This document shows positions 37,914-64,000 of a DNA stretch of 64,000 bases, one piece after another (position 1 is the first letter of the stretch; each line of letters begins with the position of its first letter). The notes below the pieces were generated by a model. It was not told the origin of the DNA, searched no databases, and worked only from the letters and a program-made list of their open reading frames with translations. Both the position numbers and the translations under genes were made by a program. Source of the DNA: Bilabrum cf. latius (taxonomy: Eukaryota); NCBI GenBank assembly GCA_965178125.1, contig OZ237764.1, positions 124,001 through 188,000 on the forward strand, in the 5' to 3' direction.

Positions 37914-40232
37914 TGCTGCTGCTGGTGCTGCTCGTGGTGGCCCCACGCACACCTGGAGCTGCACAGCCACGGACACTGTGAGCCAAGACTGTGGCCTTCC
38001 TATCCAGCGCACAGCTGGGCAGCAAGGCCACCCTCCGAGGTGCGCCCGGAATGGGACAGCCTGCAGCCACTGCGGCGCTGGCTTGCCGGGCCCTCTGCAT
38101 CCACCACTTTCCCTGCTTTCGCAGCTTGAATTGCCTCACGGGCCCCAGAGTGTGCCAAGCCGCGGCGCTGTACTGAGCCTGAAGCAGCCCACACGGGCTG
38201 GTGCGATAAACACCGTTTCCCCCATCCTCGTGCGCTCCATTGTTTGGGCTAGTTGCCCAGAGCATAGAAGGCAGCTCTGTGTTGATGTGCTACCTTAGGC
38301 CTCTGGAGACCAGCAGGACCTTCTCCTCGGACTGACCGAATGGAACAGAGCCACCAGCATGCGCATCCGTGGGGCCAATCATGTCCAGCACGATGTCTTG
38401 GTCCCCCAGCATCCTCTTGGTCAAGCCAAACATGCACTCCTCCATCGACACATCGACGCAAGAGGATGCACCCGCCTGGCCTGCCTCCGGATTCCTCGTC
38501 CACCGGCCCGCAGCTGCCTCGATCTGCCCTCGGTAGAATCGCACAAGAGCCTCTCTGGCCGTGATGGCGGGCAGCCTGGCGCATGGGTACACTTCCCCCA
38601 GCAGCACCAGATCGGCATGTGATAGATGGCTCGCGCTCGCATTCACGGGCACTGGGTCGTACTGCCTGGCCTCATCAGCCGATGCCTGTGCCCCTGCCAT
38701 GCCTACAGGGATAGCTCCTCTGGTCCCGCACACAGCCAGCAAGCATGCCTCGGGGAAGCGCAGCAGCGGATGCGGCCTCCCCGGGGCTGCCAGCGGGGGC
38801 TCGAAGAAATGCTCGGGTGTGCAGAACCGCATGCCGGCGTTGAGAGCGAATCCAAGATCAGACGAGGAATGGTCCGAGCCGCCGTACTCGCCATGTCGTC
38901 CTGCCTCATCTCCCACGAACATGCTGCGCGCATGGTCCACATGTAGTCCCCCTGTGAGCGCATGGATGGCCATGCAGGCCATCTGCCAAGCGCCAAGACC
39001 CGGCTTGCGGCACCAATCGTAGGACGGGGCAGCAACAATGAGGCACGGAATGCCGGACGATTCTAGCTTGGCCACGACTCTGACCAGCCTGCTCGTCACG
39101 TTGTTCTCTTTTCGCTCCGAGTTCTTGTCATAGGCCATACCCCCTTCGTTCGTGACCAGCACCACGAGCGGGAGCAGTAGAACCTCCTACTGGCTACCAG
39201 AGGACGGCCCACTCGAGCTGCTTGATGAGGACGACGAGGATGAGGACGAGGACGAGGACGATGCACTCGGTACATCCCCACCCTCTTCTCCACCACCCTA
39301 TGCCTCTCCAGCTCCAGCTCCGGCTCCAGCTCCAGCTCCCCACGTGGCCATCTCGATGGCCCGCTGCCGGATGCGCCTGGCTATGGTGCGGAAATTGCCA
39401 CCCGCGAATCCTTTCTCGTCGCGGTTGTTCCTCCTCACCACTGTCTCATCCACGTCCATGGCCAGCACCTGCACGAGGCCCTGCTGTGCTGCAGTGCCAT
39501 GCACAAGTCGCCAGTTGGGCTCCGATCGCTCTGCAGCGCAGTGCCTCACCGTGTGTCCAAATGCCCTGGCCTCGTGAAGCCAGTCGCTGGAGGCACGCAG
39601 GTAGCACACGCCGCCCACGGGGCCATCTGTTGATACGGGCCGCTTGTTGGAGCTGATTCTGCCCAGTATACCGTATGAGATCCACTCGTCACTGGGTAGC
39701 GTTCCGATGGCCCTTGTGACAGGCGAGATGACAGGCATGCCAGCTGATGGCTATGCATCGCTCCCCGATGCTCTGCCTTCTCTCTGCTCAGCCCCCCCGC
39801 CCTGCTCCTCTTGTGTATTCGAGTCCTGCATACTGCTTCTCAGTTGAGAATCAGAGGGGCACCCCACGAACATGCTCCGATCGCCCCCCTCGGGGCCCTG
39901 GGGTGGCCCTGCCCCATTTCCGGCCACCTTCCATTTACTCGGGTCCAGATACCCGTACATAACGTCGGACCGACGCGTAGCCTATCGCATTCTGGCCCTT
40001 GCCTACCGCACTCTGACCCCGCACCCCAGCAGTCTCATCGCCTCTGCCGCTGCCTCTTACCTGCTCAAACCCTCCGGCGGTGCAAATGCCAGGCCAGGAG
40101 CCAGCACCCGGGAGCTGCCACGGTGGGACACAAGCGCGGAGGTGAGCGGCGGGACAGGGGGGGCTGCAGATGCAATAGACAAGGGAGCAATGGCGGCTGT
40201 AGAGCCACTGGACATATCCTTGTCCTTGCCCT

Positions 40233-40271
<39 letters not shown>

Positions 40272-41460
40272 CCTTGCCCTTCCCGTTGTCCTTGCCTCCA
40301 GTAATGCTGCTATCGATACTACATGCGCTGCTGGCTGCCGCTGATCCTGCCCCTACATCCCCTCCAGAGTTGGCCATCCTAAGCTATGCCGCCAGTGCCA
40401 GTCCCCTGGTGACCACCCTTTCAGCCACGTGCTTTGGAGCTTCCACCGGGGGCTGCTTGGCGGTGGGCAGCGCGAGACCAGGAACCCACTCCAGGGCAGG
40501 CTCGTATCCCAGACCATCAACTTGGGGCGGCTCCGCGGCTGCCGCTGCCTGTGCGGCCTAGTATGCCCTGGCCCTGGCTGCCTGCTTGGCCCGGATCTAG
40601 GCGGCAAGGCCATGGCCGAAGAACGGCTCGGCCGGGGCAGGGGCAGGGGCAGGGGCAGGGGCAGGGGCAGGGGCAGGGGCAGGGGCAGGGGCAGGGGCAG
40701 GGGCAAGGGCAAGGGCAGGGGCAGGGGCCGAAGTGCCCGTGCTTCCTTGGGCCCCTGGTTCTGGTTCACCATCTTGGTCGGTATGTTCGGTCCGCCTACG
40801 CTTACTGGGTGCTTCCTAGTCGCCGGCGGATGCGCGCGCTGCAGTCCCCGCCCCACTCCCTGCTGCCTTCGCCGAGTGAGCACTTGCTTCGCTGGAGGGC
40901 GCGCCTCTGCTGGCGGGCTCTTCGTCGCCGTCATCCGATTCAAGGTCTATGACCACAGGTGATCTGATCTGTGGCTACCTGGGACGCTTGTTACCCACAT
41001 CGCTCGTTGTTGCTTGCGCAGGTAGGGCACTTTCTCCCGCGGCGCCCCCCGCAGCCTGGCTCGGACCCGACTCCTGCCCAAGTTCGGGCGTAAAATAGTC
41101 CCACCGGTGCGGTTCTGTCGGAACCAATCTCCCTGTTTTAATGCATTCGTCCATCCAAGACTTCTTTACCATGTCGATTGGTCTATAGGGCCGCTGCAGG
41201 AGTGCAATCGGAGAACCTGGCTTGCCTAGCGCGAACAGTTTAGCGTATGTGCTTTGCAGTGTCTAGTACGGAGAGACTACAATAGAATTTTGCAAAAAAT
41301 GCCCCGGAGGAGCATTTTTCCGAATATTGAGCCACTTGCTCAGCTCTGCATGCTTCGCGATGAGCGCCGACAGCTTTCGCACTTTCGTTTTGGTTAATGA
41401 GAACAAATCCACAGAGAAAAACACGTCCACTGGCACTGGATTAATAATATTGCTCTGCAT
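34753..41460 (-). CDS. Bifunctional polynucleotide 3'-phosphatase/5'-kinase (PNKP-like) with N-terminal BRCT-like domain and large low-complexity insertions (about 2200 aa)
   Basis: BRCT-like VKKSWMDECIKTGRLVP; HAD motif LAMDVDETVV, LVTNEGG, RKPGLG, SMFVGDEAGR...DHSSSDLGFALNAGMRFCTPEHFF; P-loop MSGRQGAGKST. Eleven fragments in one frame joined by TAG, except one in-frame TAA at 40057 (possible intron); TGA at 34753. Confidence 0.8.
35957..36198. repeat. 27-bp coding minisatellite (about 9 copies) encoding GLAGGSSSG in the PNKP-like gene
   Basis: Unit ctagacgacccacctgcaagaccacca repeated almost perfectly. Confidence 0.95.
40634..40727. repeat. (GGGGCA)n hexamer repeat encoding a Pro-Ala linker on the minus strand
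   Basis: About 15 copies visible directly. Confidence 0.9.
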
Positions 41461-41591
41461 GGCTTCAACGGTATCGATCTCGTGTGCTGGTTGCAGGAAT
41501 CGGCAAAAAGCCCGGGCTGGGGTCGTCTGGTTCCGGAATCACAAATCAGCTAAAAGCCAATCCCGTCAGCTATACAATCAAAATTGTCTCT

Positions 41592-44158
41592 ATGCAGTCC
41601 GCATCTGATCCTTCTAGGCAGAAGGGTAACGCTGCATTTGCCAAGCGAGACTATCTTGGTGCCGTTTAGTTCTACAACGACGCAATTCGTGAGAGAGAGC
41701 TTGTGCGTAGACCCGGTGCCAAGTGCTCGACTGGTTGTACTTAGCTCCTCAAGAATCGCACCAACGCATCCATGTGATGGCTATTTCGTTTGCAGGATAG
41801 GATAAGACGGATGTTGCTGCCTATTCCAACCTGGCTGCTGCTCTGCTCGCTGTCGGCAGGCCCGGGGCTGCTGCCATTGCTGGTGTTCAAGCGGTTCATG
41901 AAATGCTGCATGGGCACCTGGATGAGGAAACTGAAGATGCAGGTGCCTTGAAGGAGTGGAGGGTGTTGTGCAAGGCTGCGTATCGTGGATCCATTGGATT
42001 GTCGTGGTGTGGCCACGTAGCTGCGGGCGCTAGGCTCGCCGAGTTCGCGAGCGCAGCGGCCAGGGTGGCATCTAGTGGCGGCATGAACTCCAAGGACATT
42101 GCATTTGAATCCCAATCGAAAGAGACTGTCCGCGCTGCGGCTGCCGCCTGGGGCATGCTCCGCGAGAGCAGCCGAACCGCAGGAGATGGATCAGCTGATA
42201 GCACTGCAGGAGGTGGCCCCACTGGCACTGGCGGCGGCATCCACACCGTGCTCATGCGAGCTGTGACAGCACTTGCACTGGATAAATCAGAGTTCAAAGG
42301 CGCCGCTATGTTGACAGGTCCAAAGGCCGACGCAGCGCCCTCAAGCGCCAGTGCAAGCGATGGGGGCGCCGCCACTGTTGCAGCACTGGCAGGGGAGGGG
42401 GAGGGGGAGGGTGCATCAGCGGCGGCCCCTGTGCGCCCACTCCTCCCCGGCATCGATACCCTGCGCGAGGCAAGGTGCACTGCACTGCGGCTAGAGCGAG
42501 CCGCAGCTGCAGCCGCGCCCCCTGCCGGCAAGGCTGCCCCCGTTGCCCAGTTCAAAGCCCGCTCTGCCGCGCTGGAGGCGTGCATCGGCAGCGCATGGCT
42601 GGCAGGGGGGATGGCCTCTGTGGCAGTGGAGCGGCTGGAAGAGGCCCTGGCTCGATGGGAGGACCACGAGGACGGCAAGCGGGCCGCTGCTCGCCTGGAG
42701 GAGGCACTGGCGCCGGCTGTGCAAAGGGAGATGATCGGCAGGTGGGACCGCGGCAGTCCAGAGGGATGGAAGGGAGGCAGGCGCTCCCTGGAGATCATGC
42801 GAGCCGTATGTGACTGTGCACTGGCAGACCATGCAGGTGCCGTGCAGCGACTGCAGCGCTTGCCCCTGGGTGGCAGCGGGGGACCCTCAGCTGAGCCGAG
42901 TGGTGTATGCACTGCCGCGCCGTCGTCTGCAGCTTCAAGCTCAAGCGGTGCGGTGCCGAAAGGCATCGGAGCTCTCATCGCGCACCTGCAGGCTGTCATC
43001 GCTGAGAAAGCTCGGCTCGGGTCTCGCTTCAAGGAGGCCAGCGGGTCCGCAGGCGGTGACAATGCCAGCATGCGGGAGATTGCGGAGGGCTATGCTGCCC
43101 TCGGTGCCTTGTTGCCTGGGCTTGGACCTGGACCTGGGGCTGGGGCTGGGGGGACGGATGCCGCCGGATGGCAGTCGGCGCTGCTGGATGTGCTGCGCAT
43201 CGGTGGTTCCTGCGCCAGCTTCGGTTGCAACCAGAGCGTGGCGCTGCTCCGAGCAGGGGACGAACAAGGGGCCCTGAGGGCGGCGATGGGGGTCTGCCGC
43301 AGGCACCCGCTGAGTGAGAGGGGCTGGCACAGGCTGGCCAATGCGGCGGCTGCCAGGCTCGCGGGTTTGGGAGGTGGTGGCAAGGGGCCAGCGAGCGGAG
43401 CTAGCGTCACGGTGAAGTCCCAGTCCCCGGGACAGATCCGCGCCCTGCTGTGCTCCGCTGTGGATGTGCTGGGATGCCTGGAGGACTACACAGCCCCTGC
43501 GGCAGGCAGTCTCCCGCTGGGCAAGGGCCGGGCCTCCTGGCTGGCGGAGGGGGTCAGGGGGGAGGCATCCAGGAGGGCGCTGGGCAAGGACCTGGCCAAA
43601 GGCAGGGCACTCGTCACACGCGGGGGCACACCCGCCGTGCGAGAGGTCCCCAGCGACGGGCACTTCTCCAGCGTGGCGGCTGCGGCCGCTGCCACTGGCA
43701 CCGTGCTCGTGGTGGACTACCACGCGACGTGGTGCGGTCCCTGCAAGATGCTGGCCCCGCACTACCAGGCGCTGGCCAGACGGCTCTCCGGGCCCCGCTG
43801 CCAGTTCCTCAAGGTGGACGGGGACGTGTGCCAGCGAACGGTCGCAACCGCCGGGGTGAGGGCGTTCCCGACAGTGCACGGGTACTGGCCCCCTTCAGGA
43901 ACCAGACTGGCCGAGCTGCAGGGGGCGGATCCCTCGGCGCTGCAGCGGGTGGTCAAAGAGGCGATCGAGAGGGGGCGGGCGGCAAGGGCCAAGGTGCTGA
44001 GCAGAGCGAGGGCGGCCGGCGACTCGGAGGGGGGCGCGAGTCCTCTGTCCAAGGCCGACGCAGAGGGGGCCGCGGTGGCGGGTCCCGCTCTTGCGGATGC
44101 TGCCCTGGTGCAGGCAGTCAAAGGGGCGCTGGAGGCAGCCGCATCGATGGGGCTGTGA
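41592..44158 (+). CDS. TPR-repeat protein with C-terminal thioredoxin domain (WCGPC)
   Basis: RQKGNAAFAKRDYLGAV(TAG)FYNDAI; intron 41689-41795; R(TAG)DKTDVAAYSNLAAA; VVDYHATWCGPCK...FLKVDGD...GVRAFPT; TGA at 44156. Confidence 0.88.
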
Positions 44159-44348
44159 TGGAGGCGTACTCAACAACCGGATGCACAGTGAAAAGCTATC
44201 ATGTCTCTTCCAAGTCATTCAAAACCTGACGGCCCAATCGCCACGATGGACCCAGCTAGCTCGAATTCGGCCCACATGTAATGTGGAAGCAGGAGTCCCC
44301 TTTCATAGCCCGCCTCTTTCACAGCTCACTGCTCACTGCTTCACAGCT

Positions 44349-44645
44349 TCACTTCGCCTTGGCGGCAAGCGGGTCCGCCGGGCACGGGATCAGAGGCAGG
44401 ATGTACGGCGTGCTCCTCACGTATGCCTGGTACTTGGGGTTGGATGCATACCTCTCTGCGTAGTCCTTCTCCAGCATGGGGCCGGTGAGCAGGTAGAGCA
44501 GCAGCGTGATGAAGGCAGGGCTCAGCTGCGCCGACCAGAACATCAAGGGGCTCTGCAGGCCGCGGGCGGCCACTGTTGCGAGCATCCACCACATGATGAT
44601 CTCAGCTGCGTAGTTGGGGTGCCTGGAGAGGGACCAGAGGCCGGA
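44349..44645 (-). pseudogene. 5'-truncated duplicate of the DUF1295 gene (C-terminal part only)
   Basis: SGLWSLSRHPNY...PLAAKAK, cut at the duplication junction. Confidence 0.8.
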
Positions 44646-45586
44646 GCTTCGGTTGCAACCAGAGCGTGGCGCTGCTCCGAGCAGGGGACGAACAAGGGGC
44701 CCTGAGGGCGGCGATGGGGGTCTGCCGCAGGCACCCGCTGAGTGAGAGGGGCTGGCACAGGCTGGCCAATGCGGCGGCTGCCAGGCTCGCGGGTTCGGGA
44801 GGTGGTGGCCAGGGGCCAGCGAGCGGGGCAAGCGTCACGGTGAAGTCCCAGTCCCCGGGACAGATCCGCGCCCTGCTGTGCTTCGCTGTGGATGTGCTGG
44901 GATGCCTGGAGGACTACACAGCCCCTGCGGCAGGCAGTCTCCCGCTGGGCAAGGGCCGGGCCTCCTGGCTGGCGGAGGGGGTCAGGGGGGAGGCATCCAG
45001 GAGGGCGCTGGGCAAGGACCTGGCCAAAGGCAGGGCACTCGTCACACGCGGGGGCACACCCGCCGTGCGAGAGGTCCCCAGCGACGGGCACTTCTCCAGC
45101 GTGGCGGCTGCGGCCGCTGCCACCGGAACCGTGCTCGTGGTGGACTACCACGCGACGTGGTGCGGTCCCTGCAAGATGCTGGCCCCGCACTACCAGGCGC
45201 TGGCCAGACGGCTCTCCGGGCCCCGCTGCCAGTTCCTCAAGGTGGACGGGGACGTGTGCCAGCGAACGGTCGCAACCGCCGGGGTGAGGGCGTTCCCGAC
45301 AGTGCACGGGTACTGGCCCCCTTCAGGAACCAGACTGGCCGAGCTGCAGGGGGCGGATCCCTCGGCGCTGCAGCGGGTGGTCAACGAGGCGATCGAGAGG
45401 GGGCGGGCGGCAAGGGCCAAGGTGCTGAGCAGAGCGAGGGCGGCCGGCGACTCGGAGGGGGGCGCGAGTCCTCTGTCCAAGGCCGACGCAGAGGGGGCCG
45501 CGGTGGCGGGTCCCGCTCTTGCGGATGCTGCCCTGGTGCAGGCAGTCAAAGGGGCGCTGGAGGCAGCCGCATCGATGGGGCTGTGA
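44645..45586 (+). pseudogene. 5'-truncated duplicate of the TPR-thioredoxin gene (intact thioredoxin domain)
   Basis: Copy of 43217-44158; frame open and WCGPC intact, but lacks the native 5' end. Confidence 0.75.
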
Positions 45587-45805
45587 TGGAGGCGTACTCA
45601 ACAACCGGATGCACAGTGAAAAGCTATCATGTCTCTTCCAAGCCATTCAAAGCAATCATGTCTCTCCTAAACCATTCAAAACCTGACGGCCCAATCGCCA
45701 CGATGGACCCAGCTAGCTCGAATTCGGCCCACATGTAATGTGGAAGCAGGAGTCCCCTTTCATAGCCCGCCTCTTTCATAGCTCACTGCTCACTGCTTCA
45801 CAGCT

Positions 45806-46684
45806 TCACTTCGCCTTGGCGGCAAGCGGGTCCACTGGGCATGGAATCAGAGGCAGGATGTACGGCGTGCTCCTCACGTATGCCTGGTACTTGGGGTTGG
45901 ATGCATACCTCTCTGCGTAGTCCTTCTCCAGCATGGGGCCGGTGAGCAGGTAGAGCAGCAGCGTGATGAAGGCAGGGCTCAGCTGCGCCGACCAGAACAT
46001 CAAGGGGCTCTGCAGGCCGCGGGCGGCCACTGTTGCGAGCATCCACCACATGATGATCTCAGCTGCGTAGTTGGGGTGCCTGGAGAGGGACCAGAGGCCG
46101 GACTGAATCCACGGGGTGGGGCGCTCGCTCTCGGGCACTTGCTTGTAGCTGTACTTTGCAGTGTCGGCCAGGGACTGCGAGGCAAACATGGCGAGCCATA
46201 TTCCAATCAGCACGTAGTCCACCGGTCCCATGGGCTCCCCACTCAGTAGGCCAGCCTCTCCGCTGTTGGCACGAAGGGAGGCATTCGCGAGGATCCAGGC
46301 CGGGAGCGCGTCCATGGTAACCCAGAGGCCTTGCATCGTCCACACGACGATAAAGCGGCGAATGTTCAACTTAATTTGGTCAAACCTCTTGTCCTTCCCG
46401 TCTCTTGCCATGCGTGTGACGAGAAAGCTGCCAAGCCGAAGGGTCCAAAAGATGACCATCGCATGCACCGCAACCGACCGAGGCGCAGATGAGACCGCAG
46501 CCGCGAAAGACCCGAACCCCTGAATGAGTGATATCATCGATAAGGCGGAAGTTGTAAGGAATGTGACGCTGCCCCACCCATCGTAGAACTTCTCTGATTG
46601 AAATATCACTGCGGGAATTGCCGCAATCCACTGCATGCCAACGGCGATCCCAGTCAAGATCCATGGATCCGCATTCGCAAGCAT
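45806..46684 (-). CDS. DUF1295 / steroid 5-alpha-reductase-like membrane protein, 292 aa
   Basis: SEKFYD, WTLRLGSFL..R...DGKDKRFD, WTMQGLWV, SGLWSLSRHPNY; TGA at 45806. Confidence 0.92.
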   Translation of the reverse strand: MLANADPWILTGIAVGMQWIAAIPAVIFQSEKFYDGWGSVTFLTTSALSMISLIQGFGSFAAAVSSAPRSVAVHAMVIFWTLRLGSFLVTRMARDGKDKRFDQIKLNIRRFIVVWTMQGLWVTMDALPAWILANASLRANSGEAGLLSGEPMGPVDYVLIGIWLAMFASQSLADTAKYSYKQVPESERPTPWIQSGLWSLSRHPNYAAEIIMWWMLATVAARGLQSPLMFWSAQLSPAFITLLLYLLTGPMLEKDYAERYASNPKYQAYVRSTPYILPLIPCPVDPLAAKAK

Positions 46685-51181: not shown

Positions 51182-54100
51182 TTATCGCCTGATGATCACG
51201 CCGTGAAACAGGAATGACGCCACCCGGTACCACAGAAGTGAGGGTAAGGCGGCGGGCACCGTGCGAGAGCTGACCTGCTCGGCATCACCGGCTGCCTCCG
51301 ACTCCAACGACTCGAGTCCAGCTGAAGACGATATCGCAGGCTATGAATCAACCGCGCCGCTCTTAACGCGTCCTCCTGCTACGACACTGCCTAGGCGCCC
51401 TGCCGCCTGCACCAGCTCCTTCGCCTGGGCGCGCTCCCTAGCCGCGATCGACAGCTCTTGTAAAACGTCCGCCTCTCGCCGCCGCATGGCCGCCAAGTGC
51501 CGCAATGCGATGCGCATCGTACTATCACTCCCTGCATTATGAACTTCACACTGATCCTTTGTCTACCCGCCCCCTCTTAGATCGGGACCTGCAGCTTGCC
51601 CAGCTGCGTGTTCCAGTCGCAGGGCACCCTCCCTCGCCGAGTCAGCCTCGCGCTCTACGCGAGTGGCCAAGCCGACAGCATCCGGTAAAGGGCCCCCATC
51701 ACTAAGCACGCTGGAACCCTCTTTGCATCGCACGCTGACTGATCCGTCAAAATCCGAAGCTCCACTGCCAGGCGCAGCCCTCGCGCCCTCGGAAAGCCCC
51801 TCTTGCTCCTGCTCCTGCCGCACCGGAACTTCCAGCCGGCCCATCACCATCCGCACGCGCCGATCCGCCCCTTGCTGCAGGCGCATGGCAGTCTGAACCA
51901 GATAGTGTCGCTCTCTCAACGCTGCTGAGTCCACGCTTTGAGACTGTGGATGCGACCTCACCGACAGCAGGGCCATCAGCTGCTCCTTCTCCAGACCAGA
52001 AAGACACGGGACCATCGCTGACCGGCCCCACAGCCAGACGCGCTGCACCACCTTGAGCGGCGGGATGAATCGCGATACGCGAAAGAGCGATGGGTGGGCT
52101 GTATTTCGCAGCATCGCGTCAGAAATGGGAGCCACTCTTCGCTCTGCAACTGCCTGGTCCAGCAGTGCAGGGACGCGCATGTGGGGTCTGCTGACGTGAG
52201 AGTACATGGCAACAGAGCGCGCGACTGCAGATAGGTACAGGCCGTGGCGATGCATCACCCTCTAAGAGACCGACGCGGCCCTCTAGCGCGGGCTACTTTC
52301 GTACTCACGCATGGCTTGGCAGGCTGCTCCCAGCGGGAAAAGGACTCGCGTAGCGTGCTACTCTTCGGGTCTTGTTGCAGGTCCAGACACAGGCCTGCTT
52401 TGGAGTATTTTGCCGTTTGATGCACTGGCAGCTGCGTCCAGAGCAGACCCATCCTCACAGAAAGAATGCCCACCAGTGCCCGGCTCATGGGCGAGTCCGC
52501 TGTCACCGCCACCCATGGGTCCGTGAAGTCGACTTGCTGACCGTGGCCCCAACAGCCGGCGAGTATACCACGCAAGCAGCACACGCAGTTCAACTGTGCT
52601 GTTAAGTATACCTCGAGCCGCAGCTCGGAGGCTTCTTTCGGCCCGTTCAATGAATTCCTGCCTCCCTTGCTCGCCGGTTGCCTGCTTGATGGGGTTTACC
52701 CTGCACAAGTCGGACACAAGTGCCTAGTGGCTCGTGGGGTCGAGCGAATCGATCGAGCTGTCACTCTAGCAGCTGATCGGCAATTGGTACAGCTGCACTG
52801 GGGCTGCATACCTAGCTGCTTCGGGCGGGACCGCGGTCATTCCAACCCAGCAAGGAGGGGATCCTGGGATCCAGACTGTCGGCCTGATGCGCAACTGAAG
52901 GTCTGCACTAGCGCCCGCGCCTGCACCCGCACCTGTACTCGCACCCGCACTCGCTACACTCACACTTTGTAGCCTGCGCTCGGTCGCCCTCAGCCACCTA
53001 CCAACAAACGAGTGCTGCAGCAGCCTCTCGCCGCCCGCCATGCTTGAAGGCACCCAGCTACTATCTGGGCCGAGGTCCCACGGCTCAAGCACGTTCCGGT
53101 CGATCGGGCTATCCGAGGTATGCGGTGAATCCATGCGTTCATCGCTCGCTCCGCATTTTGTAGCTGTTGCACAGTAAACTGCATCGGCTCCGTCAGTAGT
53201 TGCGGTAGGACCAGCTGAACCTGCACTCTAGTCTCCTTTGCCCTCAGCCGAGTGGGCGGGCCTGGGCACGACCTTGGGTCCAGCAGTAGGGGTGTGGTCG
53301 AACCAGAGAGGTGACGAGCCGCCTGGGGCCGGGCGCACCTCAAGCGCCCTGCCCCTGGCCATCGAGGCGATGTCCTCATCGGATCGGCAGAAAGGCACGA
53401 TGCAGAAATCGCTGAATAGGAACCTCGGGCCCCCGGAGCCCCTCGCTGCTCCCAGGCAGATCTCGTCCCTTGAAGCCTCCAGCGGGCCCACCTACTCCTG
53501 GGCATTGCCCACGGAGATCCGCAGCTATTGGATGTTATTCGCATGGAGGAAGATACCTTCTTCTGCATCTGCTTCCTTAGACTAGATCGCGATGGCAGGC
53601 AGCGCCCCCAGCGGCACCCGTCCCTCCCGATCTACTCCTGCCGCAGTGGCCAGCCGGGGATCCAGCCGGAGATGCACATCCCTGCGATTCGAATCGCACA
53701 GATACGCAGCCTTGATATCGTTGCCGATATGCTTGCCGTTGTGGAATATGTCCATCTGACGAACGACTGCCAGTTTCAGAAAGTTGCCCTTGTCGAGGCC
53801 AGCGAGGCTCCGGCGAGCTGCGGCGGCTGCTGAAACATGATCTCCACGTGAGCCCGTGGGTGTACCATCGGTACCCTGCCTGGCCTCCGACACATTAGAA
53901 GCTTCGTTTAGTATTTCCCGTATCCGAAGTTTCGCTAGTTGGCCCGTGTCACCATTGCTGTCGCTACAAACTACCAGGACTACAAAGTTGCTGAGGCGGA
54001 ACGCCCAATGGATCCAATCGCGAGATGTGCACACGTTAGGAACTTCGGCACCAGTGACCTTATCTCCGCACATGGAGAATTCGGGTACCTTGTGCTAGCG

Positions 54101-54367
54101 TGCCAAGCAATGCAAGCCCCTTCGCACCATTTGAGCCTTCCGGGAGCTAACGAAAGTGGTAGTTGGGAAAGCAGACAGTTGGGTGCAGACAGTCCAGTAT
54201 GACAGCGTCCAGCTAGGAGCAAGAGGGGTCAAGATGGCACCAGACGGTTTTATTTGTATTCCGTGCCATCCTAACCCCAGGCTCTCTATGGAACCGATCA
54301 CGCACTATTTCGTGCCGGAGTCCGCTTCTATTGCGAAAGGCTCCAGCGCAATTGGGGCGGCCTGCAT
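51182..54367 (-). CDS. Hypothetical protein, about 1061 aa
   Basis: ORF fragments 54095-54301, 53582-54073, 53228-53491, 52766-53134, 52358-52717 and 51563-52258 share one frame joined only by TAG; ATG 54367; first non-TAG stop is TAA at 51182. Confidence 0.7.
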
Positions 54368-54490
54368 GTTAAGATGAAGTTATTATGGCAAGAGACATAA
54401 CTATGATGCTGTTGAAGCTGCCAGTGGCAGTAAACTGGGTGCTCCAAGTAAAGGTTCAGGAAGATTCCGGTTTGCTTGAGCCTCGGCAAG

Positions 54491-54870
54491 TGATGGTTGG
54501 TAATGTGGATCTGTCGATCAACCGCTCAATGCTTCGCTCCCCCAGCACTCTCCCTCTCCCGCCACGCGCCACTCGTGCGCCGCTACCCACCGTCGCCCAC
54601 TCGTCTGTCGCTAGCACGGCCGTCTCCGTGCCGCCTAGGCCCGGCTGGCCGCTTTGTCCTGCCCTCAGCTTCCACTCTCGTACCTAGTACCTGCTCCTCG
54701 TAATCTCCTCCTTCCGTGGCGCTTTGGTTTTGGCTGGTGCTTCCCCGGGCACTGGGCAGGCGGCACGGACCTTTCAAGCCGCTATGGGGACTACCTGCCA
54801 CTGGCCACGGGATCTACACTGGGCCCCCCTTTTGGCTGTTCGCCCATCGAACGCCGCAAGGAACACCCAC
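54491..54870 (-). repeat. Ngaro split direct repeat B2 (380 bp)
   Basis: Appears identical to 56309-56688. Confidence 0.95.
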
Positions 54871-56153
54871 GCCGCCCCGACCTAGGGGACGCCACCACGC
54901 AAAAAGAAGAAAAAATCTTGAACTCGATCGAGTTAGGGCATCACCGCTCGCACATCCCGCCCAGCCCACCACGCTCGACACGGTCCTGTATGCTCACCGC
55001 AGCCCCAGCACAGTCGTCACCCGGTCCGCTCCTATTCAGGCTCCCATTGCCTTACCCTCTGTGAGGATACGGGGTCCGGCTGCTGTCCGCACGTTGCCGT
55101 GCCTCTTGCAGCACCACAGTGGTCCTCCACTGCAGCGTACGCTGTGCAGGATCTCGCCTCGCTCTCTCGGTGGGTGTCGCCGGTGCGACTGTCCCAGGGT
55201 CGATCCGAGATTCAGGCTCTCCTCTCGGCTGTGCAGGTCACTCTGTCCCCCTTCGGCCACGGAGCCATCCAAAGGACAGAAGTTTCCTGGGCCCGCAACG
55301 CGGTTCTTTGTGCTTCCAGAAAAACAGAGGTGCTCCACATGGGGGATTTTACGGCACGGACCACACCTCTGCTCCCAGTCTCATGACCACCTCACGCGTG
55401 GCCACCTCACACCCGTCCCCACTGTTGCAACCGGGAGGGTGGGTTGCTTCCGACCTATAGCCGGATTTACAGCGATCAACATGAGGCACGGACCTCATAC
55501 TGACCGCACCCACCCCTACTCCCACGCCTACTTGACTCAGCCAAGTCCCTGGCCCCCCAAGCCACCCACCAACGGTCCTGCTAACAGTGGCCATCGGCAC
55601 CAGATGCGACCACGGAGCCTCATCTGGTTGGTGAAATGGGATGGTGGCAAAGGCCACCACCAGTTCGTCCACGTGTTCTAGATGGCTAGACGCACGCAGC
55701 TTCCCTGGCCCCGTTCCGTTGCCCTCCGCAACGCTTAAATGTTGGTAGCTAGGTATGAGTGTTGGTACCCTCCGAATCTGCGCCGCCATCCTGCGTGGGT
55801 GCCACGTGGTCCCCCCGTTGTCAGGGGGTCCACATGAACAGAAAAGAGGGCTGGTTCATGCTGGTACTGAGTGCGGAGGGAGGAGGAGCGGTCTGCCTCC
55901 GCCCCCCTCCCAAGAGAATATTACACACACTACCGGGCAGCAGTGACACACACACACTTACCCGCCCCTAAGACGCCCTGTCTCGCTGAGTAAACCTTAT
56001 CCGCCTGGCACCCCTCCCTTCAGCTGTAAGCCCCTCTGTTGTCCGCCAACTACTGGTCCCCCCTCACCTCCCGGCCTCCGCCGCGATGCCGCCCCATCCA
56101 TATCCGAAGGAAATGGGGCCAACAAGACAAGAAACAATTCTATAAAAGTAAAA

Positions 56154-56308
56154 ATTATTTCCTTTATCTTCTTCTGAATTCCCCTAAGTGAGAGCGCTGG
56201 TCTCGCTCAGCTCGTACTCGGAATTGATCCGATCAGTATACCACTATCGGCCCAAACATCACTGTACATGGATGCTCTGTATTCGTCAGTAGGGGTGCCA
56301 TTGAATCA
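56154..56308 (-). repeat. Ngaro split direct repeat A2 (155 bp)
   Basis: Appears identical to 62676-62830 and abuts B1 directly. Confidence 0.95.
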
Positions 56309-56688
56309 TGATGGTTGGTAATGTGGATCTGTCGATCAACCGCTCAATGCTTCGCTCCCCCAGCACTCTCCCTCTCCCGCCACGCGCCACTCGTGCGCCG
56401 CTACCCACCGTCGCCCACTCGTCTGTCGCTAGCACGGCCGTCTCCGTGCCGCCTAGGCCCGGCTGGCCGCTTTGTCCTGCCCTCAGCTTCCACTCTCGTA
56501 CCTAGTACCTGCTCCTCGTAATCTCCTCCTTCCGTGGCGCTTTGGTTTTGGCTGGTGCTTCCCCGGGCACTGGGCAGGCGGCACGGACCTTTCAAGCCGC
56601 TATGGGGACTACCTGCCACTGGCCACGGGATCTACACTGGGCCCCCCTTTTGGCTGTTCGCCCATCGAACGCCGCAAGGAACACCCAC
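56309..56688 (-). repeat. Ngaro split direct repeat B1 (380 bp)
   Basis: Appears identical to 54491-54870. Confidence 0.95.
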
Positions 56689-56696
56689 TGGCCCAG

Positions 56697-57935
56697 TTAG
56701 AGCCCTGAATCCCGTTCACCCCCACCACTGCTCACTGGGCTCCGGTGAAGCTCCCTGCGTTGGGATTCCCAAATCTTCAGAAGTTCTGGGATGGAGCCAG
56801 CTCCCACCATAGCCCGAAGAATCCCACTCCTCGTAACCCTTGCCGCTTCCATCAATGAGTAACGATCATACACCGCTGGCATGTTGGGCAGAGACCACCC
56901 AGCCTGGCCGTGCACGTACTTCTCGTCCTTGGTTGGGTCCGTCTGGCGCAATGCTGACACTCCCGCACTCTTGAAGGCGTACACACCCTCCCCCTTGCGG
57001 TGCACAGGAATCCCTTGCGCTGTTATCCACTGCAGCGTGGCACTGTGCGCAGCCCGTGTTCGAGAGGCGAATACTTCCCCGCGCTGCCCTTGTGTTGGCT
57101 ACCGAACTGATACCCACCACTTCAGCCACCGATACGGGCACAACTCCTCGAATCCATCCGGCAAGCATGGAATGACCGCTGGCGGGCGCTGCTCGGGGTT
57201 GCCGCCGAGCACCCGCGACTTGTACCGCTGCCACCCAATCAGGGCCACGGGAACAACCTCGTTGTCATCAGACGCTGCAGTCCACTCTATCTCCCCTATT
57301 GCCAGATGCACCAGATCTGGCCACCGGGCCAAGCCACAGAATGTCCCCACATAGCAGCACATAAATGTATCGAGAACCGCTGGTGTTGAGTTGTAGTCCG
57401 CACGGGCCAGCGCAGCTGGGCCTTGCCACATCGAATCCCACTCTGCCTGCAGCTACCAGGCCATCATCACTAGTGCTCGCAACGTTACAGGGTTGTCCAC
57501 CAGGACACGTAGGGCACGTACCGCGTCCGGATCCGTCGCCCCGGCACATCTACGCTTGTAGCCGAGCAGGGCCAGTTTGACCTGCCTGTACTCCACGTCT
57601 GCGAGTGGGGTACGCGGGAACTCCGCTGACCTGAACCACGCCGTTTGCGCTTGGAACAATCGCAACACTGTGGCATACTTCAACCCGGCGGCGCACTACT
57701 CCGTCAGCAAAGCCCACATGGCCTCCACCGGATCCCCGACCTCAAGTTCCGCCTGCATGGTCAGATTCCGCCTGCGCGCGTCCAGAGCTCCCTTGCCGAG
57801 CTGCTGACTCTCCTACAGCATCAGGGTCCTAGTCGCCGCCACCGCTGCTCGCCGTTGTGCCGCAGCACTTGAGCCTGCTCGTCCAGTCACTGGGATCAGC
57901 TCCCCAAATGGTCCTGCGAAGATGAAATGGTGCAT
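56697..57935 (-). CDS. Ngaro ORF3 tyrosine recombinase (about 412 aa from the first ATG)
   Basis: FCGLARWPDL, ELCPYRWL, YAFKSAG, AGWS..MPAVY. Four in-frame TAGs (57813, 57696, 57453, 57099); TAA at 56697; overlaps the end of ORF2. Confidence 0.85.
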
Positions 57936-60141
57936 GAAAAGTTGAGTCAGATGTCGCCCTTGCCGCCGAGACAAACCCCGTTTTGCCCACGCGCTGCCCC
58001 GCCGTCTACACCAGTTGACCAGCACCGTCCTCCACCCTGCTCAATCTATCGCATGCCACCATGATCGGTGTACTTCGCCTCTACCACACGGGGAAGATCA
58101 CGTATCCCAAGTTCTCAGCCAGCCTTCCAATCTCTCGCAGCTCATCTCGCTACCCAGCCTTCATCGAGCCGCCCTTCCGCAGCAAATTTGGCAGGGCTTG
58201 ATTGTCTGACAGCACGAAGAGCGCCTCTGGGCAAGTCTGGCTCCTCGCCAACTAGCCTGGTCCTGACAAAAAAGCTCGTAGTGATGCTAGTTCGCGTGCC
58301 GTACTGGATAGTAACTGCATGTCCTCGTGGAAACCCATTTGCATCAAGCCAGAATCACCATTGCCTCGGCGCCACATTGCACCCAGTCCATGGGCTGACG
58401 CGTCAGCACAAAACACGGATGCTCTCCCCTCCGGCAACGGGTATATCGGTGCAGCTGCTGCCGCTGTCAAGATACCGCGGTCCCTACATGTCAGCCACCA
58501 CTCAAATTCCTCGTTGAACTCTGCCGTCCAGATGTGCCTACCACCTTTGCGAGCCTTTGCAGCCGCCTAGTATATCGCAAACACGTGCTGCGAAGCGTGG
58601 GGGATTACTGCCGCAGCCGCGCCCAACTGTCCTGCCAGTTTCTCCACAGCCTTGACCGCCAGCGCACTCGTTGCTAGCATGTTGAAAGCTCGCATTCGCT
58701 CAACGGTCCTCAGCACTGCGTGGATCCGTGGCCATCGATCCGAGCGCAGTGTCACCTTCAAGTGGGCTCCCAGGGTAATCTTTAGCCCAAGGAACTCAAT
58801 CACCTATGTTGGAAAGGTAAGTTTGCTAGGCTATATCCTCATGCCAATCCCCCGCGCTACAAGCACGGCACACCACAACAACTACATAGTGCGGGCCTCC
58901 GTACGTGCTGACAGAAAGCCATCATCAATGTACCCAAAAGCCCAATGTGCGGTGCGCAGTCGCACCCCCGCTAGACACTCTGCCAACACTACTGATGCGA
59001 CAAAACAGCCCATTCTGCAACCAAACGACAAGACCACAAACTAAAACATGCTGCCACCCACTCCGCGAACTGCCATCCATCGCTGCAGCCCCGGTGCCAG
59101 CGCTATACTATGATATGCCGCCTTGAAATCGAAGGCTGCCCCCCATTCGTGCCTGTCACGTCCCACTCGCTCTGCTAAATGCCGAGCAAAATCACCATAC
59201 CGAAAACGCAAGTCAAGGAATGCCTCATTCGCGCCCGAGCGCTTCATATCCGTGACTAGGCGCTGCTTGCCAGTCGTGTCCTCCCGCTGCACCAAGCGTG
59301 GTGTCTGACCCTCCCGCTGCTGTACCTCGATTGCGGTCCTCTTGGCAACGAACATAGGCGTCACCTAGACCGCGGCGCCCTCCACCGGTCGAATCTTGCC
59401 TGCACTCGCTGCTGCTTCCACGAACGGGACTACATCCTCCTCGTCCGCCGGCAAGTCCTTCGGGTCAGCCCGTACCGGCTGCGCCCCCAACACCTTCAAG
59501 ACTGCCTCCGCCCGAAGCCCATGTCGTGCCAGTCCAACAAACCCCCGGCCCGCTACACAATCGGGCTCCACTGCGCCCCGCGCCCCGCAGCGTCGACAAC
59601 GAGCCAAATGTGCCTGCCATGCTCCACGAGGTGACAGCGTACACGGCTAGCGTGCTGCCCATCGCTCCCCCTGCTGCAGTTCGCCCCTACGCTCCCCGTG
59701 TGACAACGTTCCATACCAGACGTCCAAAGCAGATGATGGTGCCTAGCCCGGTGGGAATGACCGCAAGTCAATCTTGTCCCGCTTTGCCAGGCATCGTGCC
59801 CAAGCCTACCACATCCCGTCCGCACCCAATGCTGACGGTGCATCCCCAGTCATCCCCGCTCCCGCATCACCGTCATTATCCACAGAATAGCCGGCTGCTT
59901 CCATCTGCACCTCGTGCCATCGTCTCGAGGGGCCTGCAGATGCAACCTAGTCCAACAATTCGTCCGCGTGTTCCATGATGTCCGTCACAATGCACCGCCC
60001 ATCCAGTGTCCGCAGGCTCGGCTCACCACGCTGTAGGGTCGGAGTCTTCTGCTGAGCCAGGATTTTTTGCGCTGCTTCCGAAGATAGTGCACATGCCTAC
60101 ACTACTGCAGCCCTTCCCCTGGCTCGGGCCGCGTCACCCAT
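57742..60141 (-). CDS. Ngaro ORF2 reverse transcriptase + RNase H (about 799 aa)
   Basis: FDFKAAYHSI, F(TAG)FVVLSFG, GYIDDG, PT(TAG)VIEFLG; RNase H ADASAHG, RELASL, SDNQ, ACDRLSR. About 16 in-frame TAGs; TGA at 57742. Confidence 0.92.
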
Positions 60142-62677
60142 TCCCCGCTAGTCGGCCACTTCGTCTTGGGGAGGTACGGGGCTCCGCCTACTTTTTGGGC
60201 CCCGATGTCGTCCCTTTGTGGCGCTCTGACTCCTGCTGCGACTCTTGTCCACCCGCACTCGCGCTACTGCTGCTGCTGCTGCTGCTGCTGCTGGCCTTCG
60301 CTGACTACCGTTTTGCCGCTGCCCCCGCTCCTCCAGCTGCGGCCCCATGCGCCTTTGCCACCCGCTTTGCTCGCTCCAATGCTGACTTGTCTATCGCGGC
60401 TGTCACATCCTCCCACGCCATAGCGCTATGGTTGCCTGCCGGATTCAGTCCCAGTAATTCCCACGTGGGCCCCACCTGAGTCTGCGTCATCCGCAGCGGG
60501 GTCTCGTTCTCGCTCCGCAACTACCACAGTCGAAGCACCGCAGGAGTATCCATTCTCCCCACTGGTGCCACCCTATGTATCAAAATCATGCGCAGAGCAG
60601 TTGCTAACACGAAATGCTGACCCGTATTGGCTGTGTCCCCGTTGCCTCCACCTGCCGTGCGGACTGCTGCCGCATGAAGGACCATCCCTAAACCCAAAAA
60701 CATTCTTCGCACTGCAATCTCCAACGCCTCGTGAAGCTTGCTCATTACTGCCCTGGCTTCCGCATGCTTATCCTGGTGCAGCAGTGTCGCAAGTTTGATA
60801 ACCACCTTCAGCAACGACGTGCTCCCTGCCACGACCCACTCGAGCGCCCCACACACCGATCTGGTCAATATCGTGGGTAATCGAAAAATGTTGCCTTGTT
60901 CCAGTTCTGCCACTCCCGACAACACGTGCTACCCGCACTTACTCGCAAATTGCCTGATCCCGTCCGGCATGAGCAAATCACCCGCCTCCTCCAGCACCGG
61001 TGCCACATGAAAGCTGCGGCCAGATCCTGACTCCCGGCGAAAACCAGCCGCACTCGCCATAGAAGCGAACATTATCTGCGCGGGGCGTTCAATCCGAAGT
61101 AACGAAATCTTTGCCTTGTCCGCACTCGTCAGCGCCACTGAGGCCAAGTCCTTAGCTCTCTCGCCTTCCTCCCCGAGTTCGGCCAAATACCGTGCACTGT
61201 CCCTAAATTGAAGCACCTCCTAAGACCGTACGGTGTCGTAGAACAAAGAGTCAACTCCCTTCGCCGTGGGAATGGAATTATGCACTTCCTTGGCGCCGTC
61301 TCCATCGTCTGCTCCGACCTGGCCCTGGTATGGTGACTTCTTGCAGGCGCCGGCTGACGACTTAATCGCCTGGGTGGAGTGCTCGGGCCGGGCATTTAAC
61401 TCAAGCGCAAGGGCACGGAGCAACTACAACGTACCATTGGGCTCACCCGATGCCATGGCCGCAACCGCCTGTTGAATTCGCTTGTCGATCGCGTCACTCG
61501 CGGTCGCCTCTCCTGCTCCCGCGGATGCTCCCTCGACCTCTTGCTCGCGCCTTGCCGCCTTGGTGCGACGTTCCGAATCCGCCACAATGGCCTCCCAGGG
61601 AGCTTGTGCTTCCCCCACCTCTTCCGCTCTCCCCCTTTTTCCCAGCGTTGCGCCCGAGATGGTGCCCATCGACGCCTGCGCCCCAAACACCGCGCTGGCG
61701 CCGCGGCTTGCCGTTGGACCTCCCGCTGGTTTGCCACCCGCCCCAGCATCGGCCGCAGTCACTCCACCACGGCTGAATCCGCCCCCAAAATCAAAGAGGC
61801 CCAGCTCGCTCGGCGGATGGCCTGAGGTAGCAGTCGCCCCTGCACCGGCCCCCCCGCTTGGGGCAGGCAGTTTCCACCCAAACCCGCCACCGTCCATGAT
61901 GCCCCGGCCCAGTGAGTGCGCTCCCATCGGCCCCCCGGCTACACGTTCAGTCCTTGACCCCGTGAATGGTGCTGTTGTTGATGCCCCGGATGGTACCGGG
62001 ATCACCGGTGCTCCCCAGAGTGGGGGCACCCCATTGCTGCCCGTCGCATCTTGGCCTGAATTTCCACCCGTCGCCGCGCTCGCCGACGAACTGCTGCATG
62101 TCGGCTTCGGCATCGCATGGATCAGCATGTTGGGCAACAGAGCATCGAACATTTCGTCGAGGAAGGGGATCGTCCACGGTGCCACCCGGGCATAGCCGAA
62201 CAGGGCCGCACGTGCTGCCCACGCTGCCTGCTGTGGCGTTACACCACTCTGTAGTGGTTGCTGCAGGCATTTCCAGAGCTCACCATGGTCCTCGGGCATC
62301 AGATCGTCCTTTGAGAACCCTGCTGCCGCTTCCAGAGCGCCACGCAGGCCCGATTCCACGTCTGGCGTCGTGGTCGGTTTGAACACGCCCATAACGGCAG
62401 CCCCTGCGCCCAGGGAAGCGACCGGCGTGTGGCCGCGTACGCAGCTGCCCAACAGAGCCCGCTGCGCATCTGCCCCTTCTTTGTTTAGCATGTTCACAGC
62501 CTCGCGTACGACAGGCTCCGAGAAGCTCGACATGTGTTCAACAGCCATACCTTGAAACACATCGAAAACGCCACCCACAGCGTTCACCCTCCGCCTCACC
62601 GTTGGGGCCATACGAGTGGTCATTCGCGCCACGATCGCCCGGCTTTGCTTCCATTGCGCACTCTGCTGGCTGAGCAT
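60134..62677 (-). CDS. Ngaro ORF1 (gag-like by position), about 847 aa
   Basis: ATG at the inner edge of A1. Six in-frame TAGs (61424, 61220, 60929, 60521, 60305, 60188); TGA at 60134. Confidence 0.8.
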
Positions 62678-62830
62678 TATTTCCTTTATCTTCTTCTGAA
62701 TTCCCCTAAGTGAGAGCGCTGGTCTCGCTCAGCTCGTACTCGGAATTGATCCGATCAGTATACCACTATCGGCCCAAACATCACTGTACATGGATGCTCT
62801 GTATTCGTCAGTAGGGGTGCCATTGAATCA
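62676..62830 (-). repeat. Ngaro split direct repeat A1 (155 bp)
   Basis: Appears identical to 56154-56308. Confidence 0.95.
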
Positions 62831-62869
62831 CGGAGCGCCCTGATTCAAGGCCCCTGAAGCTCCTGGCAA

Positions 62870-64000
62870 TCACTCCACAGGCTCACCCCACGAACTATTG
62901 TACGTCTCTGGTGTAAATCCGGCGAGCCCCCATTTCTCCTTCATGTCCTGCAACGTGGGCCCCCCCCCGTCTGCGGCACCAGACTTCTCCTCCTTTTCCC
63001 TCTCCTTCTCCTTGCCCCCTTCATCTGCAGCAGCGTCGTCGGTCGCCCGCATGCCAGCTGCCTGGCGACTATCCACGTCCTCTGCCCCCGCCCCCACGTA
63101 CCTGGGATCCACCTCGTCCCCCTTTGGCTGCCACCTCACGTCGCAGCTGATCCTCACCTTGTCTGTCAGATTGGCAGTGGACATGTGCAGCGTGCGCATC
63201 CCGAACACAATCACGTCTCCCGCCCTGTAGTCCCCTGCTACCCACTGGCACTGGCACTGGCCCGCATCACCATCCGGACCCCCCGACGATGGCGAGGAGG
63301 TTGCAACCGCCTCGATCTCGGCGGGGTCCTCAGTAAACCACCCAGTGCCCTGCATCCCCTCCCTCTCCTGGTCCATCGAGCCGTATGTCTCCCGCAGCAG
63401 ACTCAGCCCCGCGCTCCTGTGCGACCCCTTGCACATGGCTAGACCCCCCATTTCAAGGGGCGTGTCCCCCATGGGGATCCAGGTGGTCAGCAACCTCGGG
63501 GAGCCTCGACTCATGTACACGTGGTCCATGTGCGCTCCGGTGAAGCGGCGGCGGGGCACGCCGCGGAGCCACTTGTAGTCAAACGTGAGCAAGTCGTCCG
63601 GCTTTTCCCCCAGCACCGTGGCCACCGCAGCCCGCAGGTCCTCATGCTCCACGCAGGCGAGCACGTCGGGCCTGGCAGTCTGGACCCCTTCCATGAACGG
63701 AACACACCCAACGCCGCACCTCGCCTAGAGCTGAGCGTCCTCCCGGCCAAAACTGTCACCAAAATCAAGTACATCGCCCTTGACTTTAAATTCTTCCAAC
63801 ACCGCCGATCTTGCGCGCAAAACGGCTTCGCGAGGAATCACACCACGCAAGAAAACGAAACCGTCCTCGCCAAAACGCTCGCGGAGGCTAGCACCAGAAG
63901 CGTCTTCTTCGAGCAGCAATGAGCTGTCTGGAATCTGTCCGAGCTTCGAGGAGGGGAAAAGGACCGTTCGCTTGCCGAGCTAAATATGGCGTTTTTTCAC
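62870..64000 (-). CDS. Phytanoyl-CoA dioxygenase (PhyH)-family 2OG-Fe(II) oxygenase (5' end outside the window)
   Basis: DGFVFLRGVI, TGAHMD (HxD), TWIPMGD, GGL...GSH, GDVIVF..TLH, RIS. TAGs at 63980 and 63725; TGA at 62870. Confidence 0.9.

Follow-up and report, generated by a model that had tools for sequence, protein, structure and literature searches.

A probable full-length Ngaro-like retrotransposon with in-frame TAG codons in Bilabrum cf. latius, a host that likely reads UAG as glutamine

Tyrosine-recombinase retrotransposons constitute the order DIRS, in which a Dam-type methyltransferase is a hallmark of DIRS and PAT elements, while its absence separates Ngaro and VIPER elements from both. 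The Ngaro superfamily was reportedly defined by Goodwin and Poulter in 2004 for animals and fungi. Closer to the subject of this work are the Ngaro types 1–4 of Cafeteria burkhardae, a protist with a GC-rich genome (Hackl et al. 2021, PMC8547959). According to the available sections of that report, these elements encode a Gag-like protein, a reverse transcriptase (RT) with ribonuclease H (RNase H), and a recombinase, in this order; they lack an rve-type integrase, and their direct repeats are split, with A at the 5' end and B-A-B at the 3' end. In this work, we describe an element of similar composition found in a 64,000-nt stretch of DNA of Bilabrum cf. latius (GenBank assembly GCA_965178125.1, contig OZ237764.1, positions 124,001 to 188,000 of the forward strand), which we call the window and whose numbering is used throughout. 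Its host genome is also GC-rich (0.58–0.71 per 2 kb); the order of the open reading frames (ORFs), the lack of an rve-type integrase, and the split repeats are alike, and so is the size, at about 6–7 kb for the element without its spacer. All three of its ORFs contain in-frame TAG codons.

The element occupies positions 54491–62830 (8340 nt) on the minus strand, and it probably represents a full-length Ngaro-like retrotransposon (order DIRS) that was inserted recently and resides in a host in which UAG encodes glutamine. Along the minus strand, the order is A1, ORF1, ORF2, ORF3, B1, A2, X, and B2. Repeat A (155 nt, GC content 0.46) is found at the 5' terminus as A1 (62676–62830) and internally as A2 (56154–56308), directly after B1, while repeat B (380 nt, GC content 0.64) is found internally as B1 (56309–56688) and at the 3' terminus as B2 (54491–54870). 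When the element region was compared with the window by blastn, the members of both pairs proved identical over 155 of 155 and 380 of 380 nt, that is, at 535 of 535 bases. A preceding sequence-only reading had remarked on repeat pairs that look identical, which is borne out, and had placed the element at 56697–62677; this span covers the ORFs, but the element is larger and lies on the minus strand.

The three ORFs are all encoded on the minus strand and start with ATG. ORF1 (60134–62677) comprises 847 aa, with six in-frame TAGs and a terminal TGA; ORF2 (57742–60348) comprises 868 aa, with 17 in-frame TAGs and a terminal TGA; and ORF3 (56697–57935) comprises 412 aa, with four in-frame TAGs and a terminal TAA. 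The ATG of ORF1 spans the last two bases of A1. The ORFs overlap mutually, and by their coordinates ORF2 and ORF3 are each shifted into the +1 frame with respect to the ORF before them. The 27 TAGs are accompanied by no internal TAA or TGA and no frameshift, as had been claimed; because the other two sense frames over the same stretches contain 100 such stops (15 TAA and 85 TGA), the frames are open far beyond chance. The earlier TAG counts stand for ORF1 and ORF3, but ORF2 has 17 rather than about 16, bringing the total to 27 rather than about 26. Under the standard code, ORF1, ORF2, and ORF3 fall into 7, 18, and 5 pieces, the longest RT-bearing one being 107 aa, so the element looks dead under that code and intact when TAG is sense, just as the first reading had it. 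TAG accounts for 27 of the 107 Gln codons of the element (25%) versus 85 of 591 (14%) in 11 host ORFs (Fisher p = 0.009), and for 10 of 92 in the related element L003 described below. The identical repeat pairs and the intact ORFs fit a recent insertion, which agrees with the earlier view of a complete and probably recently inserted element.

On one side of the insertion is the stop of a PhyH-family gene (position 62870), and on the other is the start region of the ORF at 51182–54379. Without the 8340 nt of the element, the host gap measures ~150 nt, and other inter-ORF gaps in the window range from 138 to 350 nt. The outer flanks, ...GCGCTCCG before A1 and CTTGCCGA... after B2, have no bases in common at their ends, and reading of both revealed no target-site duplication at the two ends of the element; the flank beyond B2 is unlike A. 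The B1/A2 junction, ...ATCA/TGAT..., is an 8-bp palindrome, which reads ATCATGAT at 56305–56312. Additionally, an inverted copy of the first eight bases of A, TTGAATCA, is present in the host flank 10 nt upstream of A1 (62831–62852), and it may be a recombinase recognition feature or a product of chance. Two other classes of retroelement were considered and ruled out: a long terminal repeat (LTR) retrotransposon of the Ty3/Gypsy, Copia, or BEL type, as the repeat pairs interleave (A..B A..B) instead of flanking the element as LTRs do and no RVP or rve domain is present, and a DIRS1-like element, as no inverted repeats of at least 25 nt occur within 54000–64000 and no methyltransferase is encoded.

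The order and identity of the repeats are those of a Ngaro element, but B1, A2, and B2 are not contiguous, with A2 and B2 separated by the spacer X (54871–56153, 1283 nt, GC content 0.60). X is apparently non-coding: its sole ORF (146 aa) has no Pfam match and low recognition in Atlas, a language-model look-up; an Rfam search of 54000–63200 gave no match; and neither the remainder of the window nor the related contigs L001–L003 contain sequence similar to X. It is possible, although we lean away from this explanation, that the insertion is composite, consisting of an A-ORFs-B unit head to tail with a short non-autonomous A-X-B unit, or of one element with an unrelated 1283-nt insert at the A2/B2 boundary. 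The canonical layout, in the available sections of PMC8547959, has B1A2B2 contiguous, and the same sections mention that both solo AB repeats and nested Ngaros occur in Cafeteria; X itself carries no coding or RNA signal, and the fact that the A2-B2 spacer is known from one copy counts against treating the whole as one unit. On the other side, both repeat pairs are 100% identical, the ~150-nt host gap left without the 8340 nt fits a single insertion event, and neither terminal repeats nor a duplication were seen around X. Moreover, bridging during replication tolerates sequence between A2 and B2, where PAT-like elements have coding sequence (PMC4157794, as far as its available text goes). A single insertion of one spacer-bearing element is the reading followed here.

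Relatives of the element were obtained through a shorter-length search and a full HMMER scan with ORF2, which gave 386 matches at E ≤ 1e-3; word-based searches with ORF2 residues 300–800 and with ORF3 at near lengths returned nothing, and an ORF2 search of viral contigs and prokaryote genome contigs found no relative. The best 20 of the 386 matches are fragments of 32–242 aa with 38–100% identity. Six fragments on one 3631-nt contig are 95–100% identical to ORF2 and ORF3 and are bounded by TAG181, 328, 515, and 594 of ORF2 and TAG161 and 279 of ORF3; therefore, a second, slightly different copy has these TAGs. With a single fragment protein, P0011, as the query, three metagenome contigs were found (L001–L003; 6.2–7.7 kb, GC content 0.63, 99.7–99.9% alike). 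They show the matching three-ORF layout with 7 + 2 + 1 = 10 in-frame TAGs, located at sites other than those of the element, and relatives at 33%–99% identity carry in-frame TAGs too, mostly at other sites. Identity to the L001–L003 proteins is 34% for ORF2 (over 647 aa, E 6e-71) and 33% for ORF3, while ORF1 shows weak local similarity to ORF1 of L003 (E 4e-4). The differences within ORFs among the three contigs comprise at least four substitutions, all four synonymous, and in-frame repeat-length changes.

Two structural features of these contigs were observed in passing. In L003 (4095–4100), as in L001 and L002, ORF1 ends with TAA and ORF2 continues directly in the same frame, a gag-pol junction of the read-through type, while ORF2 of the element is in the +1 frame instead. 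L001 (1–199) and L003 (1341–1539) are wholly different upstream of L003 position 1540, although the copies are otherwise 99.9% identical; the A-like repeat of L003 (1179–1304, matching 7639–7740) lies further upstream of this divergence point. The 5' difference could mean that one copy is truncated at its 5' end, that the leader varies, or that the assembly is chimeric.

The position of ORF1 alone suggests a Gag-like protein, and ORF1 has no match in Pfam, PDB, PHROG, or NCBIfam. ORF2 is the Pol protein, composed of RT and RNase H. It matches Pfam RVT_1 at residues 398–524 (E 2.2e-10), which is the sole Pfam domain of ORF1–3. The RT domain (58549–59328, minus strand; residues ~341–600) contains Y-I-D-D at 473–476, and D407, Y473, D475, and D476 are invariant in an 11-row alignment; in the same alignment, D649, E686, D715, and D767 of the RNase H domain (58039–58431, minus strand; residues ~640–770) are invariant as well. 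The ORF2 family profile matches the Ty3 RT/RNase H structure 4ol8 across both domains (E 1e-31). No methyltransferase, protease, or integrase was found in ORF2, with no match to a Dam methyltransferase at E ≤ 0.1, and after the final Asp of RNase H, ORF2 has only 101 residues left, overlapping ORF3. The element, L003, and the fragment P0131 share a conserved Cys motif in the N-terminal part (residues ~247–279, 59512–59610), with C-x2-C-x(8-10)-C preceding G-R-G-x-[IV]-G-L-A-x-H-G; this may be a zinc knuckle located in pol instead of ORF1.

To place ORF2 among its relatives, 89 of the 150 listed, the longer ones and mostly of at least 400 aa, were scanned for domains. A Dam-type methyltransferase was found in 8 of the 89, an ALOG domain in one, and caulimovirus or LTR types in two, while the others have RT with or without RNase H and no further domain. 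A FastTree phylogeny of 90 rows was built from ORF2 of the element, ORF2 of L003, and 88 of the 89 scanned relatives, P0138 having been dropped by a length filter. The element and L003 are sisters (support 98), with P0045 next (91), and they fall outside a 42-row clade (support 95) that holds seven of the eight methyltransferase-bearing rows. What tells against a firm Ngaro placement is that the element and L003 sit on a long branch of their own and that the rows of this tree are unnamed, with no named Ngaro reference among them.

ORF3 is probably a divergent tyrosine recombinase, judging from its sequence and its position downstream of RT/RNase H, where Ngaro recombinases sit. Three motifs are conserved in four lineages, namely G-x-A-R-x-P-D-L (R204), W-x-R-[YF]-K (K239), and Y-[AS]-F-K (319–322), and the two lineages that reach the C-terminus also conserve H-x-Q-A-x-W (W347) and V-Y-x-R (Y356). 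Y356 lies nine residues past W347, a spacing equal to that of W315 and Y324 in Cre. In hhalign comparisons, residues 71–136 fall on the core-binding helix region of P1 Cre (E 0.04) and lambda Int (E 0.2), while residues 344–369 fall on the W/H...Y motif of a 10-row phage recombinase profile (E 0.11–0.17); W347 is paired with Cre W315 and Y356 with Cre Y324. Each of these matches is non-significant by itself. An Atlas look-up of the relative P0172 gave a recognition of 3189 and a best score of 0.95, and the PF00589 set accounted for 14 of the 30 hits, alongside clusters of DUF3504 and NDC10_II, which we take to be recombinase-derived folds.

Several points weigh against this assignment. ORF3 and its relatives have no match in Pfam, PDB, PHROG, or NCBIfam, by phmmer or by profile, and a local HMM of ORF3 matched none of the fetched proteins. 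At the place of the expected H-x-x-R, in a register set by eye, all four lineages have Y-[AS]-F-K. The hhalign comparisons with Cre, lambda Int, P0104, and the 10-row profile are not significant (best E 0.04–0.2), and the Atlas lead comes from P0172, which covers residues 90–330, has no E-value, and shares 139 features, a low number. It is conceivable that ORF3 is not a tyrosine recombinase and that the element is a retroelement with another integration protein or none. The absence of database matches, hhalign probabilities below 2%, and the missing H-x-x-R motif speak for such an explanation. We nevertheless regard it as unlikely: the ten best family-bearing Atlas hits of P0172 share a family or clan (PF00589, DUF3504, NDC10_II), the three best hhalign segments occur in the correct order on the core-binding region and the catalytic Tyr motif, and ORF3 is placed as Ngaro recombinases are in an element that encodes no other integration enzyme.

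The in-frame TAGs are not a peculiarity of the element. Stop-to-stop ORFs of up to 2432 codons extend across the window only when TAG is taken as sense. Among host ORFs backed by Pfam, in-frame TAGs number eight in MatE, eight in 5'-nucleotidase, 14 in PNK3P plus kinase, and two each in thioredoxin, PhyH, and IU-nucleoside hydrolase, with none in DUF1295, and all of these ORFs terminate in TGA. These genes being open only with TAG as sense, the host itself appears recoded, as the sequence-only reading had supposed. In our view, the host nuclear code likely assigns UAG to glutamine and keeps UGA and, apparently, UAA as stops, a UAG-only Gln code which is presumably NCBI table 15. Such codes have been described in Iotanema spirale, Protocruzia tuzeti, and two phyllopharyngean ciliate lineages (PMC11687900, available text). 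The present case is alike in that TAG stands for Gln while ORFs in the window end in TGA, for the most part, or in TAA; compared with those lineages, the host here is GC-rich with long uninterrupted ORFs.

A sense role for TAA was also considered, as ORF1 of L003 ends in TAA with ORF2 following in frame, and the PNK ORF of the window is preceded in frame by TAA. Of five TAAs examined, three (that of ORF3 and those of two host ORFs) are followed by another in-frame stop at a distance of 29–35 codons, and two by one at a distance of 245 and 1767 codons, the latter belonging to the ORF upstream of PNK. The TGA at 5757 shows the same sort of in-frame adjacency as these long cases. With three short extensions in five and this TGA adjacency, TAA as a sense codon in the window was rejected, and a rare sense use may be beyond the reach of 64 kb. 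A scan of the window found no tRNA gene and hence no tRNA-Gln(CUA) there.

Homologous sites in relatives suggest which amino acid TAG encodes. The element ORFs were aligned with 14 divergent ORF2 relatives and two ORF3 relatives, leaving out the six near-identical fragments and P0011, which is part of P0165. Relatives have Q in 10 of 45 cells opposite TAG sites, 16 of 76 opposite CAG/CAA sites, and 71 of 2591 elsewhere. The TAG sites thus differ from the other sites (Fisher p = 6e-7) and not from the CAG/CAA sites (p = 1.0), and at TAG506 and TAG594 of ORF2, every aligned relative has Q. Where fragments end was examined as well, with the C-terminus required to be aligned within three residues: 6 of 13 divergent fragments end opposite a Q of ORF2, five at TAG and one at CAA, while Q makes up 48 of 868 ORF2 residues; the remaining seven end opposite S, R, E, A, E, C, and A. 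The ORF3 relative P0172, 83% identical to residues 90–330 without a gap, has Q opposite TAG161 and K opposite TAG279 and ends exactly at CAG331 of the element, where P0169 (58% identical to ORF3) ends too. TAG behaves as Gln, interchanging with CAG, and the alternation of TAG with CAG/CAA across relatives, which the sequence-only reading had proposed as a check, occurs in both directions, with Q at TAG161 in P0172 and an end at CAG331.

Two points temper this result: the cells of the site counts are not independent, as several fragments probably come from one element, and the stops that end fragments were read as DNA for P0011 only (a TAG in L003, opposite E569). One could also suppose that TAG is sense but stands for another amino acid (Glu, Lys, Leu, Tyr, or Trp), which seems very improbable to us. 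Among the 45 cells opposite TAG sites, R (8), C (7), A (4), and H (3) occur beside Q, and one host TAG alone lies on a strongly conserved column; but Q is the commonest residue there (10), at a rate as at CAG/CAA sites, no aligned relative departs from Q at ORF2 506 or 594, and the stops of relatives fall on CAG/CAA Gln codons of the element. The conserved host column is that of MatE TAG167, which stands opposite the Q of an L-C/S-x-Q-x-x-G-A motif in all three MATE structures with alignments shown. MatE TAG340, 374, and 438 stand opposite L, S, and H/V in unconserved columns, and the TAGs of 5'-nucleotidase, PhyH, and PNK lie outside aligned conserved stretches or on unconserved columns, so both groups are uninformative on the amino acid. 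As a separate observation, the Cys residues (7 of 45 cells) occur in several relatives at three ORF2 TAG sites, 328, 436, and 733 (~59365, 59041, and 58150); Cys is neither a typical substitute for Gln nor one mutational step from TAG or CAG.

That the locus is a dead element in a standard-code host, with TAGs arising by nonsense decay, is scarcely credible: all three ORFs are indeed broken under the standard code, but 27 TAGs coexist with no TAA, TGA, or frameshift, host genes require TAG as sense, the repeats are identical, and the TAGs are not private to this copy, as a second copy, nearly identical, is interrupted at shared TAGs, and Q and TAG alternate in distant relatives.

A life cycle can be proposed for an intact element in a UAG = Gln host by following the Ngaro model in the available parts of PMC8547959, PMC4157794, and PMC6681497. 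Transcription would run from A1 into B2, and the RNA would be reverse-transcribed by ORF2. The internal B1A2 junction would then serve as a bridge, or template, on which the B2 end is joined to the A1 end to give a circle, which the ORF3 recombinase would integrate with no target-site duplication. X need not block this cycle because it lies outside the bridge.

The 27 TAGs would truncate all three proteins in a cell that uses the standard code, and we therefore infer that the element lineage is probably confined to UAG = Gln hosts. The earlier argument that transfer to standard-code hosts would be blocked is in keeping with this, since all three ORFs are broken there (7, 18, and 5 pieces). The companion claim, that the element has co-evolved with the recoded host long enough to depend on it, gains from a diversified clade whose members all have in-frame TAGs, and it is reasonable to infer such a dependence. 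A broader proposal is put forward tentatively, and we consider it rather unlikely as a whole: that a Ngaro-like clade of at least five lineages (33%–99% identity, some of them environmental) diversified only in UAG = Gln hosts, with H-x-x-R replaced by Y-x-F-K and with cargo possible between A2 and B2. If this were true, the reassignment would work as a firewall in one direction, letting standard-code elements in but not letting the UAG = Gln clade out.

The locus is a natural example of a selfish element that only a recoded host could read, in all three of its genes, and it makes testable the idea that codon reassignment isolates the mobile elements of a host from the standard-code world. Standard-code gene callers cut such elements into fragments of 30–240 aa, which hides them from current protein catalogues; relatives of the element in environmental samples could point to hosts that have this rare UAG-only Gln code. 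The replacement of the second catalytic Arg by Lys would be of interest to tyrosine-recombinase enzymology if ORF3 proves to be an active recombinase.

Other features of the window were noted. A tandem duplication (43217–44491 and 44645–45948, 97–98% identity) involves the C-terminal thioredoxin-domain part of a gene, and both copies retain an open Thioredoxin-domain ORF (41693–44158 and 44600–45586). Within the PNK3P/kinase ORF, a 27-nt tandem repeat (35922–36245) with ~12 mostly exact copies encodes a Gly/Ser/Ala-rich nonapeptide repeat, and within the minus-strand ORF at 40057–41538, a (GGGGCA)n microsatellite (40610–40754) encodes a Pro-Ala repeat. No virophage or Polinton-like genes were found in the 64-kb window.

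The literature searched, which did not extend to subscription papers, contained no account of a tyrosine-recombinase retrotransposon from a host that reads UAG as Gln. Set beside the Cafeteria elements, the one described here differs in several respects. By their description in the available sections of PMC8547959, Cafeteria recombinases have a PF00589 match and H-x-x-R, while ORF3 has neither; their B1A2B2 is contiguous, while that of the element is interrupted by X; and many of them lie inside endogenous virophages, while the element lies between host genes. The phrase "genetic code" does not appear in those sections. With animal and fungal Ngaro elements, as covered by the available text of PMC4157794, the element shares the lack of a methyltransferase and the identical repeat pairs seen in young copies, and it is unlike them in its A2-B2 spacer, its divergent recombinase motif, and its apparent use of TAG as a Gln codon.

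DIRS1-like and PAT-like elements have a related RT/RNase H (8 of the 89 scanned ORF2 relatives have Dam) and likewise replicate via an internal bridge; unlike them, the element has no methyltransferase, shows no inverted terminal repeats, and falls outside the methyltransferase-rich clade, whose rows are unnamed. Ciliate transposons (Tec, TBE, and Tlr) use the reassigned stop codons of their hosts as sense. They belong to other element classes, hosts, and codes (UAR or UGA) than the element described here.

The assignment to Ngaro made in the sequence-only reading holds as far as the architecture goes, and not in the interruption of B1A2B2 by 1283 nt, the failure of ORF3 to match a recombinase model, or its Y-x-F-K motif. 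The element is best described as a putative Ngaro-like variant, not a member of Ngaro, a label that rests on its architecture: the order of ORFs, the lack of a methyltransferase, the internal repeats, and the absence of a target-site duplication. It is filed as a variant because B1A2B2 is not contiguous, H-x-x-R is not recognisable, and the tree gives no placement by a named reference. That a resident element uses the reassigned codon of its host is expected; the clade, the recombinase motif, and the spacer are what this locus adds to the known systems.

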